From a phage, in sequence record PZ452596.1: DNA of 64,000 nt, one strand, 5' to 3'. A program made the translations under genes and the position numbers. Of the stretch, positions 13,184-56,331 are shown piece by piece (within the stretch, counting starts at the first letter, position 1; each line of letters opens with the position of its first letter). Below the pieces are notes generated by a model that searched no databases, was not told the origin of the DNA, and was given only the letters and a program-made list of their open reading frames with translations.

Positions 13184-13426
13184 TCAAATAGACTTTTTCA
13201 CAATTTTCCAATCAGCTTTAAACTGCTCGACGTCAGAATGGTAAATCCAAAATCCTGCGCTTTCTCCATCCTCATAAAGAGGGCATCCATCACATTCATC
13301 TTCCCACCCCATATCGCGTAAAAGGTGTTCAGCTTTTTCAACAAGTTCAGAATCTTTACCGATGATATTAAAATACCATTTACCTCTAACTTCTGAATCT
13401 TTGATACTCTGACGTTGTAATCTCAT
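13184..13426 (-). CDS. hypothetical protein (frd-32 cluster)
   Basis: 80-aa ORF with CDGC motif. Confidence 0.5.
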   Translation of the reverse strand: MRLQRQSIKDSEVRGKWYFNIIGKDSELVEKAEHLLRDMGWEDECDGCPLYEDGESAGFWIYHSDVEQFKADWKIVKKSI

Positions 13427-13514
13427 TTTATTCTCCTTAGCAAGCTTTAATCAAAAGATATAAACAGACCAACATAACTGCTGCCATAATATAAGGTGCG
13501 AACATTTTCTTTTC

Positions 13515-13570
13515 TCCATTAGTTTTGATAGGGTAATAGTATCACACTACTACCCTGTTGTAAACAATTA
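13515..13570 (-). promoter_or_regulatory. early promoter candidate
   Basis: minus strand TGTTTAC followed by -10-like element; member of dispersed repeat family. Confidence 0.4.
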
Positions 13571-13861
13571 TTTTTGAATTTTATCGAGCCACTTACCAAG
13601 CTTAATCATTTCTTTAGTAGCCTTTTCCATACTTCTGAACTTAACCAATAGAGGATAGGTATCGACACCCATAACTAAACTGGTTACAAGACTGTGTTCA
13701 CCCACAAGCCATAATGAATACGTTTGAATATCGAGCCCGTAATTTCTGTCTTTATGGACCCGTACACCCATCACTTCAAATTTCTCACTAGCTTTTTCTA
13801 CCGCATCCAGGAAATCATCTTTAGTCATATTAGGCCTTAAAAGTTTTTCGCAAAAGTTCAA
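13568..13861 (-). CDS. hypothetical protein (frd-32 cluster)
   Basis: 97-aa ORF. Confidence 0.5.
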   Translation of the reverse strand: MNFCEKLLRPNMTKDDFLDAVEKASEKFEVMGVRVHKDRNYGLDIQTYSLWLVGEHSLVTSLVMGVDTYPLLVKFRSMEKATKEMIKLGKWLDKIQK

Positions 13862-35763: not shown

Positions 35764-36702
35764 TTATTTAAATTGTTCAGTAACGTCTTCAACTACTTCG
35801 TATTGGCAGGTACGCATTTTAGCGTCGTTGTAATCAATCGGAATTGATACTACATCGCGAGGATGTACTTTAACTTTTACAACTCGGCTGGTTGAACTGC
35901 CAAAGTGACGAATATAAGATTTAGAACACACATGCAGACCGCGAGAACAAGTTTGTGTATCATCGTCATTCACACGAGTACGTGGCATTTTAACTACTTT
36001 ACCCGGACTGTTATCAAATGTGTTTGAGTGACAGTCAAAGTAATTGCTGCGAACTACTTTCCAAGCATAGAAGTAACCATCTTCTGTAATTTCAATATCG
36101 TTTGCTACCAAGAAATCAAAGAGTCGAGATACCGCTTTTTGGCTTGGGTTTTCCAGCAGATTTTCCAAGAACGGAAAATAAAATTCAAAGTTTTCGCCTT
36201 TTTCCATCGAGTCAAGAATACGATCAACTAAACCGGACCGCAATTCGATATTTTGATAGAACAAGCTTCCACCTTCAATTCGAACATCGCCGGAAATATA
36301 TTTTTCAACAGCGCGACGAACATTAATTTTTTGCACAGCTTCTTCCAGCTTATCCGCTACAAGCAGATTAAGAATTTCCTGGAAGTTTGAATGAGTATTA
36401 GGAGTTGCGTTATAAGTTACGCCATCAACAGTAATTGAAATGAATTTTTTAGATGCATTCCAAATAATGTCAGATTTAGCAACTGGAGCAATAACTGCAT
36501 CGCTATTAACTTTAACTGTAATATCACCGCTAATAGTAACTTTAGGGTGTTTAGCTTCTTCAGCATTTTTCAAAACACGACGGATTGTGTCAACCGATAC
36601 ACCTTGCCAATCAGCCAATTCCTGTTGGGTGTAATTACCACTTGAATACAGTTTAACAATTTCAGCTTGTTCATTTTTGGTCAGGCATTTAATATTGTAC
36701 AT
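35764..36702 (-). CDS. rIIB: rIIB protein
   Basis: 312 aa, matches T4 rIIB. Confidence 0.95.
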   Translation of the reverse strand: MYNIKCLTKNEQAEIVKLYSSGNYTQQELADWQGVSVDTIRRVLKNAEEAKHPKVTISGDITVKVNSDAVIAPVAKSDIIWNASKKFISITVDGVTYNATPNTHSNFQEILNLLVADKLEEAVQKINVRRAVEKYISGDVRIEGGSLFYQNIELRSGLVDRILDSMEKGENFEFYFPFLENLLENPSQKAVSRLFDFLVANDIEITEDGYFYAWKVVRSNYFDCHSNTFDNSPGKVVKMPRTRVNDDDTQTCSRGLHVCSKSYIRHFGSSTSRVVKVKVHPRDVVSIPIDYNDAKMRTCQYEVVEDVTEQFK

Positions 36703-48796: not shown

Positions 48797-49399
48797 TTAT
48801 AGATTAAATCCTTCAAAATCAAGAGTATAGATAGTGTATGTTGAATACTTTTTATACTCATATCTATCTGCAATTCTAAATACACTTCCAGCTGGTATCA
48901 TTACTTCTTGTTCATCTGAAACTAATTCCATATTACGATAACGATGGCTATCCGGAAACTTAAAGTTTGGATTGTATTCTTTACAGCGTAGAGCTTTTAT
49001 AGCATACTCCTGGAAATTGAATACCATAGGAGCTTTGAATTCAAAAATAACTTGTGTGTTATACTCTAAACCGGAAGCAAAATGTAGAGCTATATTTTTA
49101 TCATATGAAGCTGATACGACTTTATCAAATGTAATAATATCAATTCCTTGATTTAATACTTGCTTAGTCTCAGCTGGAACACCTCTCCAAAGAGGTTTAT
49201 CGTTTGGAACCAAACGAGATTTGATTATTTCATTTAACCAAGAATGATCGTCTGGTTTATTAGTAATACAATGAATTAAAAGTTCAATTTCAGATAAATT
49301 AAACCCTTCAGAAAGTAATTCTTCACGAATAGAAGCACGCACCGATGCATCCATTGATTTTATTTTAAAATCTTTTAGTTGCATTACTGAGTATTTCAT
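48797..49399 (-). CDS. modA: ADP-ribosyltransferase ModA
   Basis: 200 aa, same length and position as T4 ModA. Confidence 0.85.
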   Translation of the reverse strand: MKYSVMQLKDFKIKSMDASVRASIREELLSEGFNLSEIELLIHCITNKPDDHSWLNEIIKSRLVPNDKPLWRGVPAETKQVLNQGIDIITFDKVVSASYDKNIALHFASGLEYNTQVIFEFKAPMVFNFQEYAIKALRCKEYNPNFKFPDSHRYRNMELVSDEQEVMIPAGSVFRIADRYEYKKYSTYTIYTLDFEGFNL

Positions 49400-50019
49400 T
49401 CAACTACCTCAATATCATAAACTTTAAATGTTCCAAATGAATCGTGTAATTTTTCTTTTGAAATAGAAGTTATTCTATACTTTCCAATTGGAATCATCCA
49501 TTCTTGTTCACGCACAATCATCATTAAGTTGTCAGTACGCTCTGAATCTAGCCCATCAGTATCTTCATACGTGTACTTAAACTCAGTATTAGGAGAAGAA
49601 AGTATAATATCGCTGATATGGTCAGAATAATTAAAAGCTTTATCAGTTTTTAAGCGAAATATTATTTCAGTGAAATACTCAACATAAGAAAAACCACATG
49701 CTGTGTGCAAACTAGTAGTAAATGAATCTACCCTGTTCGTTGAAAACACTTCTCCAACTTGTAAATCTTTAATGAGTTCTTTTGTCGATTTTGATATACC
49801 ACGATATAACTGATAAGGTGATTTAGTTAAATGCTTTTTAATGATTTTATTCAACTGCCTATGAAGAGCTTCATTCTTTTTGGCTTCCATACATTGCCAA
49901 AGAACGGATTGTTCAAAGTCAGTAAATTTTTCACAGACTTTTTTATACATATCATATTGAAAATCAACGCTTTCAGCTTTTATAGATAACTGTTCAACAT
50001 CTTCAAGATTAATAATCAT
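49396..50019 (-). CDS. modB: ADP-ribosyltransferase ModB
   Basis: 207 aa, paralogous to ModA; early promoter upstream. Confidence 0.85.
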   Translation of the reverse strand: MIINLEDVEQLSIKAESVDFQYDMYKKVCEKFTDFEQSVLWQCMEAKKNEALHRQLNKIIKKHLTKSPYQLYRGISKSTKELIKDLQVGEVFSTNRVDSFTTSLHTACGFSYVEYFTEIIFRLKTDKAFNYSDHISDIILSSPNTEFKYTYEDTDGLDSERTDNLMMIVREQEWMIPIGKYRITSISKEKLHDSFGTFKVYDIEVVE

Positions 50020-50034
50020 GATAGCCTCCGTATA

Positions 50035-50085
50035 CTTCAGAAGCTATCATATCATTGTTAGAAAGGAAAGTAAACAACTTTTTGA
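50035..50085 (-). promoter_or_regulatory. early promoter candidate upstream of modB
   Basis: minus strand AAGTTGTTTAC then -10-like ATGATATGATA. Confidence 0.4.
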
Positions 50086-50086
50086 A

Positions 50087-50269
50087 TTATTTTGCCCAGG
50101 GAGCCCAGGGCGGAGGGTCAAGATGGTATGAAGCTAGTTCTTCTAGAAGAGCATCTGGGGCTTCAATTCCATAATTCTGTAATACTATACGGTACTCTTT
50201 CTTATAATCACTAGAATCATTCTGGATATTCGTAGAATGATTATCTTCTAACATCTCAAATAAATCCAT
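50087..50269 (-). CDS. hypothetical small acidic protein
   Basis: 60-aa ORF. Confidence 0.4.
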   Translation of the reverse strand: MDLFEMLEDNHSTNIQNDSSDYKKEYRIVLQNYGIEAPDALLEELASYHLDPPPWAPWAK

Positions 50270-50277
50270 ATTAATTC

Positions 50278-50559
50278 CTAGCGATAAAAACCAAAATAAC
50301 GATTAGCTTCAATAATCTTTCTTTCTTCTTCGGACATTCTCCAGCGTAGTCCAACGTCAAAATGAGCCCAGACCATCTTAACAAATGCATTTATATCTTT
50401 AATATCTTCAATAATGAATGTTTTACTTTTCGAAGGTTGACTCGCTAATTTAACTTTATCATCTTCAAACAGGTCAAAAAGACCATATTCGTGAGCTCTT
50501 TTATAGCCTTTAATAGTTAAAGCTTCAGAAGAAGAAAATGGTGAATCTGTATTCTGCAA
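50278..50559 (-). CDS. hypothetical protein, possibly 3' part of a frame-disrupted gene
   Basis: 93-aa ORF begins at TTG; same frame stays open to 50673 with no ATG; upstream 28-codon ORF ends in another frame. Confidence 0.35.
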   Translation of the reverse strand: MQNTDSPFSSSEALTIKGYKRAHEYGLFDLFEDDKVKLASQPSKSKTFIIEDIKDINAFVKMVWAHFDVGLRWRMSEEERKIIEANRYFGFYR

Positions 50560-50900
50560 AATATCTTCAGTATGCTTTATAATTAGAATAACATTTTCTG
50601 GATATTTTCTTTCTTTTATATCTTTAATTAAAAAATCCGGATTTTCTGCTAAAGGAATAATTAATGAGCATTTTTATCAAGCGTATTTACTGATTTACCT
50701 TCTTTAGACATAAATTCTATTGAATATAGTTTTGCTACTTCAATCATGTGATTTCCTTTTGCCTACTAATGGACCGTCAGGAATTTTGTTTTCCTGAATG
50801 TATTTCTCATTTTCTTCCATCATTTTACTGCCAATTTTAAGAAGCAAATCCATTGCTTCATTTGCTTTTGCTTTAGCCTCTTCCAATGTCATATCTTTGT

Positions 50901-51104
50901 TCATGATTTATCACCATAGATGTCTCTCATCAATTTAAGCGCTGAGCGCTCTAATTTCTTTTCTTTCTCAGCACTAATCATTGATTTCATCCATTCTTCC
51001 GATTCGTTCTGCATTTCTTTATTTGCTTGTTCAACCCAACCATCATCAATATACATTGAGTTTGGTCTATTGAACCATTCAAGAATCTTCTTGAAAGCTT
51101 TCAT
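50901..51104 (-). CDS. hypothetical protein
   Basis: 67-aa ORF. Confidence 0.4.
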
Positions 51105-51564
51105 TTATTTTACCTAAAATAATAGTAGGAGCATCGTCAAATTTATGAATTTTTAGCAAATTTGGATTTAAATTATTCCATAAAGAGGTAATAAAATATG
51201 ATAGCGCACTTTCGTCCGTAATTATAAATTTATTTCCCTTATCTATTTTCCAGTCATATATTGAATCATATGAATAGAAGGACAATGGTTTATTATTATA
51301 ATATGCTTCACTAACATCAATATAGTTAGATTTAGTAAATGCTTGAATTGCCATAAATGGAGAATTTTGTACAGTTTCAATAATTCCGATCTTTTTAAGT
51401 TTTATTTCAACATCTTCTGGAATTGGCATTGAAATAAAATCTTCTACTAGATACATATTATTGTCATATCTTTTATCAATCATTACTGCTACGGTAATTG
51501 GAACATCCTTGACAAACGCCATACTAATACTATTGATAGACATTTCAAACAAAATTGCTTCCAT
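51079..51564 (-). CDS. hypothetical protein (mrh position in T4)
   Basis: 161 aa from MEAILFEMS; name by position only. Confidence 0.4.
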
Positions 51565-52126: not shown

Positions 52127-52204
52127 AGTGTTCTCCTCTATAAGATATTTTTATTATACCACACTCATTTTGACATGTAAACCATAAAATGAAAAAAGGA
52201 ATCC

Positions 52205-56183: not shown

Positions 56184-56331
56184 ATGCTTTAACTAAAGCT
56201 TTATTAACTTCAGCGAGTTGTGAAGTGACCCATAGAACTTGGTCTCTATCAGACACATCCATAGTGATTTCTTTGGTAAACATATTACCATTTTCAAACC
56301 AGCCAATAAAAACAACCTTTGCTAATTCCAT
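56140..56331 (-). CDS. dmd: Dmd-like antitoxin (inhibitor of RnlA/LsoA)
   Basis: 63-aa ORF immediately downstream of gene 41, the T4 dmd position; sequence identity not verified. Confidence 0.55.
   Translation of the reverse strand: MELAKVVFIGWFENGNMFTKEITMDVSDRDQVLWVTSQLAEVNKALVKAFVNDKKVFESDWRG

Follow-up and report, generated by a model that had tools for sequence, protein, structure and literature searches.

The modA.3 locus and its neighbours

The DNA analysed here is a window of 64,000 nucleotides of phage sequence, in which the region under study is 100% identical to the Tequatrovirus RB27 (KM607000 / NC_025448). Positions 39001-64000 of the window correspond to positions 2288-27287 of the RB27 record, and the window must therefore cross the arbitrary ends of this linear, circularly permuted GenBank record, at about window position 36,700. 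Every gene around the modA.3 locus is carried on the minus strand (Table 1), and T4, T6, RB51 and RB27 share the arrangement modA.4-modA.3-modA.2, followed downstream by modB and modA. In T6, the slot between modA.4 and modA.2 is filled by a single modA.3 gene (dda.7) of 471 nt, encoding 156 aa; T4 likewise has one unbroken gene of 471 nt at 13,389-13,859, and RB51 one unbroken ORF of 483 nt, encoding 160 aa. T2 and nearly all of about 500 relatives also possess modA.3 as one ORF, of 156 or 160 aa.

Table 1. Genes and sequence features at the modA.3 locus of RB27 (positions in the window)
Feature	Position	Strand	Description
mrh	51564..51079	-	Intact gene of the same operon, distantly paralogous to modA.3; PF24070 E 2e-41, phrog_1234
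srh	51104..50901	-	Gene between mrh and modA.4
modA.4	50904..50740	-	Upstream neighbour; stop overlaps the modA.3 start; phrog_2681
modA.3 (dda.7), probable pseudogene	50278..50747	-	470-nt remnant of a 471-nt gene for a 156-aa T4_MRH-family protein
N-terminal remnant	50747..50661	-	Native ATG 50747, 28 codons, premature TAA 50663..50661
Lesion site	50670..50675	-	A5 run 50675..50671, then a single T at 50670; one base short compared with A6-T / A5-TT
C-terminal remnant	50673..50278	-	131 sense codons and TAG 50280..50278, now in the -1 frame, without a start codon of its own
RB27_024 'modA.3'	50559..50278	-	93-aa TTG ORF; the only piece annotated by GenBank and RefSeq
modA.2	50269..50087	-	Downstream neighbour; own Shine-Dalgarno sequence (AGGA); phrog_1647
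modB	50019..49396	-	Downstream of modA.2
modA	49399..48797	-	Last in transcription order, after modB

Two strong matches to sigma-70 / T4-early-like promoters were observed on the minus strand of this region, one at 52181..52153 (TTTACA-17-TATAAT with TG, 11/12) and one at 50074..50046, just upstream of modB (TTTACT-17-TATGAT with TG). The latter early-promoter-like site is likely to serve modB and modA as their own.

The names given to these genes in public records require some caution. The product of T4 modA is an ADP-ribosyltransferase. In many GenBank phage records the homologues of modA.2, modA.3 and modA.4 are described as 'molybdenum ABC transporter, periplasmic molybdenum-binding protein ModA'; this label is a name-propagation error from the T4 symbol modA, and these small proteins are unrelated to the bacterial molybdate-binding protein. 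Similarly, the RefSeq product name 'Mrh transcription modulator' attached to ModA.3 (RB27_024; T4 NP_049638) is a family label and not a tested function.

The family in question is that of T4 Mrh (PF24070, T4_MRH; phrog_1234), of which ModA.3 is a full-length member, encoded two genes apart in the same early operon. However, ModA.3 shares only about 26-28% identity with Mrh (28% over 53 aa), and the rpoH-related phenotype has been shown for mrh, not for modA.3. A connection of Mrh with sigma-32 and with late transcription during heat shock has been made, and in vitro the protein assembles into a very large complex (PMC8076793). The same article describes a megadalton assembly of T4 Mrh and refers to a cryo-EM structure at 3.3 Å, given as 'data not shown' (PMC8076793).

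A sequence search of the PDB returned no homologue of either ModA.3 or Mrh. The AF2 model of an intact ModA.3 homologue, built on a shallow alignment of 11 sequences (pLDDT 67, pTM 0.65), is a single alpha/beta domain with strands at residues 2-14, 26-32, 53-65 and 108-112, and a Foldseek comparison of this model with the PDB found no match (best E 1.2). A literature search for 'modA.3' returned irrelevant papers only.

Two fragments of one reading frame

The earlier note had described a 28-codon ORF stopping at 50661-50663 and a different frame which stays open from 50673 through a 93-aa ORF, with no ATG before a TTG. All of these coordinates are exact, and the latter was confirmed as an open stretch of 131 codons. 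The context of a small early gene also holds, the gene being modA.3, which in T4 belongs to the early, dispensable 39-56 region.

The beginning of the gene is preserved in RB27. A Shine-Dalgarno sequence with a good match (AAGGA) lies 7 nt upstream of the ATG at 50747, and this ATG overlaps the modA.4 stop (ATGATTGA) in the same way as in the intact orthologues. The -1 frame is shut by TGA TAA at 50679..50674, directly before it opens, and the first ATG, GTG or TTG within its 131 codons is the TTG at 50559, which opens the 93-aa ORF. With the local sequence containing 38% A and 30% T, the probability of a stop is 0.086 per codon, giving a probability of about 7e-6 for 131 open codons, and a stretch of this length was reached in one of 2000 shuffles of the surrounding 1.2 kb. 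The 131-codon frame is thus a coding remnant rather than a product of chance. Its translation aligns to residues 26-156 of the intact ModA.3 proteins.

A -1 ribosomal shift, or one extra base, would rejoin both frames. The rejoined protein of 156 aa covers positions 1-143 of the 144 in PF24070 (E 6e-39, score 133.6 against a cut-off of 24.4 bits) and positions 4-165 of the 165 in phrog_1234 (E 3e-52). Since both matches run straight over the junction, the two ORFs are fragments of one gene.

The position of the lesion is defined by alignments with T6, T4, RB51 and other loci, in which RB27 reads GAT AAAAA TGC (window 50675..50668) and lacks one base at codons 25-26. Aligned with the orthologous region of T4, as the earlier note had suggested, RB27 is one base short of a single uninterrupted gene. 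The alignments with T6 and RB51 each contain one 1-nt gap; apart from it, RB27 differs from these phages only by substitutions or by an indel of 12 nt which preserves the frame. This indel, at about window position 50449 (codon ~101), separates the ModA.3 proteins of 156 aa (T4, T6, RB27) from those of 160 aa (RB51, RB68 and others), which have an additional 'LALN'; it falls in a low-confidence loop, residues 94-107, of the AF2 model.

The alleles at the run of A residues were tabulated for 30 loci. Most relatives, including RB51 and T2, carry six A residues and one T (A6-T; GAT AAA AAA TGC, Asp-Lys-Lys-Cys), while T4 and T6 carry five A residues and two T residues (A5-TT; GAT AAA AAT TGC, Lys-Asn-Cys). 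The alleles AAAAAG and AAAGAA, both in frame, are rarer than these two. In the nearest intact relatives codon 26 encodes K, N or E, and the base missing from RB27 is either an A from A6 or a T from A5TT. Among the readings proposed in the earlier note, i.e. a pseudogene, a sequencing indel or a -1 frameshift site, the first is favoured by the intact single gene in T4, T6 and RB51 and by the one missing base in RB27.

Intact and broken alleles among relatives

Searches of public collections indicated how far the two states of the gene are distributed. A 65-nt query over the site gave a 100% match only to the two copies of the RB27 record (GenBank phages, 417 records), and a synthetic A5-T query in the commonest background matched none of 496 GenBank phage records exactly. 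The extra base is spanned in all 88 GenBank matches listed (28 of 417 and 60 of 496 records, two lists which may overlap). With a degenerate pattern accepting both states, the alleles were in frame in all six matches from IMG/VR and all four from JGI metagenomes, and GTDB genomes gave no match; the RB27 allele as an exact pattern gave no match in IMG/VR. At the protein level, about 95 of 104 modA.3 clusters are full length, with 156 or 160 aa, and codon 26 among 106 full-length clusters is K in 78, N in 15 and E in 13. Over 12 unique intact modA.3 alleles dN/dS is about 0.25. These comparisons show that intact modA.3 is under purifying selection and that the disrupted state is the derived one. 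Moreover, the downstream frame of RB27 carries no further damage, which makes the deletion a recent event.

Broken alleles were nonetheless found outside RB27. A collection of 15 billion proteins gave a handful of calls of a 93/97-aa ORF ('MQNTDSPF…'), the DNA of which was then read. The identical A5-T lesion is present in five further haplotypes, which differ from RB27 and from each other by SNPs lying 2-12 nt away from the run as well as in other parts of the gene: SRR17235754 / SRR17276506, in a GGT background with in-frame twins (loci L017, L021 and L024); GCA_050222245 / SRR33434684; SRR12217730; ERR10215114, in a 160-aa background and with a second indel, a +1 T insertion upstream; and SRR35767381. 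A run of seven A residues, i.e. a +1 allele, occurs in two haplotypes (ERR13951886 and SRR26103359 / GCA_031654825), against six with A5 when RB27 is included. Some of the sources of these recurrent alleles are automatic assemblies of unknown quality.

The haplotype from ERR10215114 (locus L018, ERR10215114_7531) shows a peculiar arrangement over codons 10-27, in which the +1 T insertion (AATAGAA to AATTAGAA) is followed 50 nt downstream by the A5-T deletion. The frame is restored on balance, but stops are present in the shifted stretch, and the locus represents either a pseudogene with two hits or an assembly of poor quality.

These contigs also bear on the annotation of the locus. A shorter ModA.3, translated independently from TTG 50559, would agree with the annotated CDS RB27_024 and with the calling of the same 93/97-aa ORF in other assemblies, yet on every contig with such a call a lesion lies upstream in an otherwise full-length gene, and the counterpart of this ORF sits inside intact modA.3 in all relatives. 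Furthermore, no Shine-Dalgarno sequence precedes the TTG, and the codon itself is not conserved, being TTA in RB51. The AF2 model, of moderate confidence, argues in the same direction by placing strands from the first 65 residues together with those at residues 108-112 within a single alpha/beta domain, and in it neither fragment looks like a unit able to stand alone. Two separate genes with a conserved second start, the finding which according to the earlier note would have spoken against a disrupted gene, were thus not what the orthologues revealed. An independent gene of 93 aa was rejected on these grounds and is barely conceivable; the 93-aa TTG ORF is a gene-caller artefact.

Taken together, the sequences describe modA.3 as a gene which is functional yet dispensable, and in which null alleles seem to arise repeatedly, about one third of them at the A-run, without persisting. 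The recurrence of A5 and A7 alleles in differing haplotypes points to a slippage hot spot, as a single origin followed by recombination would call for repeated breakpoints, many of them, only a few bases away from the run.

Origin and consequences of the missing base

The loss of a base in a homopolymer raises the question of whether it occurred in the phage or in the record, as indel errors concentrate at such runs. In the latter case modA.3 would be intact in the stock, and the deposited consensus would have lost one base at the A-run. There is a single deposited RB27 sequence, KM607000 being the same as NC_025448, and it derives from a de novo Velvet assembly which was manually post-processed; the underlying data are MiSeq 2x250 reads with a median coverage of 2,966x (PMC4293622). 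At this depth a consensus indel in a run of 5-6 nt is very unlikely. A comparison of RB27 with RB51, covering 25 kb and about 48 genes, found inside coding sequence a single isolated gap with a length that is not a multiple of three, the one in modA.3. The remaining gaps of this kind are intergenic, or belong to compensated clusters in divergent patches of goF, dmd and the end of motB.1. Besides, the identical lesion recurs in independent assemblies of other phages, and twice the two assemblers of the same sample agree on it, which means that the A5 and A7 alleles really exist. The sequencing indel considered in the earlier note is therefore improbable, although slightly less so than the independent 93-aa gene, and the deletion appears to be physically present in the RB27 stock. 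In dmd (window 56248-56260), the comparison with RB51 shows a block of an 8-nt and a 1-nt insertion, net +9 and in frame, in a locally divergent patch.

Recoding was weighed as a way in which RB27 might still make full-length ModA.3 in useful amounts, through a -1 frameshift on GAU AAA AAU G or through an A added in the A5 run by slippage of the RNA polymerase. Lysine codons rich in A are intrinsically somewhat shifty in E. coli, and dnaX uses A AAA AAG. The RB27 site resembles that of E. coli dnaX in the -1 direction and in its A-rich sequence with Lys codons, shifting by -1 at AAA-AAU would yield precisely the T4-type ...LDKNCSLII, and the 131 downstream codons are still intact. However, the similarity ends there. 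The absence of a classic slippery heptamer, already remarked in the earlier note, was agreed: the zero frame reads GA U AAA AAU G, and the heptamer U AAA AAU does not conform to X XXY YYZ. With U as its first position, the P-site Lys tRNA would have to re-pair with UAA. The zero-frame stop follows just two codons later, the nearest sequence similar to a Shine-Dalgarno (GAAGGT) lies about 25 nt upstream, too far for stimulation, whereas dnaX has one upstream together with a downstream hairpin, and the 94 nt downstream fold at -6.6 kcal/mol (z +0.58), with 148 of 200 shuffles folding as well or better. The split arrangement is not conserved either, given that the ten collection matches are in frame and that the 88 listed GenBank rows carry the extra base, and the variation of codon 26 among K, N and E indicates that selection never maintained the site for frameshifting. 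Productive transcriptional slippage is known from runs of roughly 8-9 nt or more, and A5 is far below this length. Both a programmed -1 frameshift and transcriptional slippage as a designed mechanism were thus rejected, and recoding, including the -1 frameshift site put forward in the earlier note, is highly improbable as a source of useful amounts of protein. As with any frameshift mutant, spontaneous slippage of ribosomes or of the RNA polymerase may provide some rescue at a low level.

We consider it probable, with good though not full confidence, that RB27 modA.3 is a recent pseudogene produced by a genuine, fixed one-base deletion, most likely of the slipped-strand type, and that it represents a tolerated null. 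Frameshifts of ±1 at runs of A are the classical Streisinger mechanism and the basis of the rII hot spots. On this model, the phage DNA polymerase would have slipped on a short mononucleotide run, and the mispairing of the strands would have cost one base at codons 25-26. Ribosomes would start at the native ATG, translationally coupled to modA.4, and release a peptide of 28 residues at the premature TAA (50663..50661), while the remaining 131 codons in the -1 frame, having no usable start, would be essentially untranslated. modA.3 would then be a null allele in the RB27 stock, and RB27 probably makes no functional ModA.3 product. The closest parallel is offered by Benzer's hot spots of T4 rII, including the A6 run of rIIA: the phage group and the polymerase are the same, and a ±1 change in an A-run of 5-6 nt gives a null which is revertible by the opposite slip. 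In contrast to those selected mutants, the RB27 allele stands in the consensus deposited for an isolate of natural or laboratory origin, and a phenotype is known only for rII.

The phage would tolerate the loss for two reasons, the location of modA.3 in the dispensable early 39-56 (delta12) region and the presence of mrh as an intact, if distant, paralogue. On the T4 map delta12, a large dispensable region, spans 16,280-3,778 (PMC6070864), and T4 modA.3 falls within it. The effect on the phage is accordingly expected to be neutral or nearly so. As regards the neighbouring genes, 391 nt (50270-50660) separate the last translated codon from modA.2, which might suffer some polarity despite its own Shine-Dalgarno sequence.

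A more far-reaching proposal is that the A-run acts as a contingency locus of T-even phages, at which ±1 slippage turns an early protein of the Mrh family ON and OFF. The OFF state of RB27 and at least seven other haplotypes would then have been selected repeatedly, for instance as an escape from a host function triggered by ModA.3, the protein being costly or sensed by a host function in some strains. Simple sequence repeats (SSRs) of at least 6 nt in T2, T4 and T6 have been called 'contingency loci' in a recent preprint by Gomez, Barrick & Waters (2025), where the A6 run in rIIA was found to revert about 10^4-fold faster than a SNP (bioRxiv 10.1101/2025.10.21.683753). In that work SSRs of T2 agt and T4 rIIA behave as switches which can be reversed, and the T2 modA.3 run, at coding positions 73-78 of 471, is listed in Supplemental Table 5 (bioRxiv 10.1101/2025.10.21.683753). 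The likeness extends to the recurrence of ±1 alleles among isolates, observed in at least eight haplotypes here, with A5 in six, A7 in two and a single 7-bp read among 1990 in T2. Furthermore, the A-run accounts for all six of the N-terminal -1 lesions, and the homopolymer of T with the same length (T6), 40 nt downstream, has none.

Several observations stand against a working switch. The repeat is not conserved across relatives: by the 6-nt measure an A6 run is found in RB51, T2 and many others, whereas T4 and T6 have A5TT, others have AAAGAA and RB27 itself has just A5, and the alternatives A5TT, AAAAAG and AAAGAA are common, with N or E at codon 26 in 28 of the 106 full-length clusters. OFF alleles are rare, one in about 496 finished genomes among the matches listed. 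In two populations of T2, variant reads at the modA.3 run numbered 0 of 1922 and 1 of 1990, the latter with 7 bp, against a mean variant-read frequency of about 3e-4 for SSRs (bioRxiv 10.1101/2025.10.21.683753); slippage at these frequencies (0 and 5e-4) marks the run as an ordinary SSR and not an exceptional one. A full-text literature search for modA.3 found no relevant paper and no known phenotype. Finally, modA.3 carries other, independent lesions at many places, the pattern expected of simple decay; phage NiC89 has a frameshift in the C-terminal part, and elsewhere a stop follows KMV or indels lie close to KYPEN. An adaptive role of the run is for these reasons unlikely, even if it is the least improbable of the alternatives to a tolerated null.

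The preferred explanation, a slip which became fixed in the absence of any particular advantage, has a counterpart in T2. In nrdC.6 (T2 NC_054931, 49198-49203) a 7-bp run was present in 2526 of 2527 reads, compared with 6 in the reference (bioRxiv 10.1101/2025.10.21.683753). That slip was already fixed in the T2 stock, and the fixation of such events in laboratory stocks is hence not unusual, in parallel with RB27.

In itself the RB27 allele matters little, being a recent loss of function in an accessory gene by a type of event known in T-even phages since the rII work. It has, nevertheless, some practical implications. In the RB27 record modA.3 should be marked as a pseudogene, in place of the annotated 93-aa TTG ORF, and RB27 provides a ready-made natural modA.3 null for phenotype hunts on this Mrh paralogue. 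Of mild interest is the fact that ±1 alleles recur at the run in unrelated isolates, which constitutes a field example for the claim that short homopolymers are mutational switches in phages.

A second recurrent truncation of ModA.3, '...KRAHEYGPF*', was observed at the protein level in P0126 (Salmonella phage SG1), P0127 and P0101; it would map to the T5 run in GGTCTTTTTGACC and occurs in at least two backgrounds.
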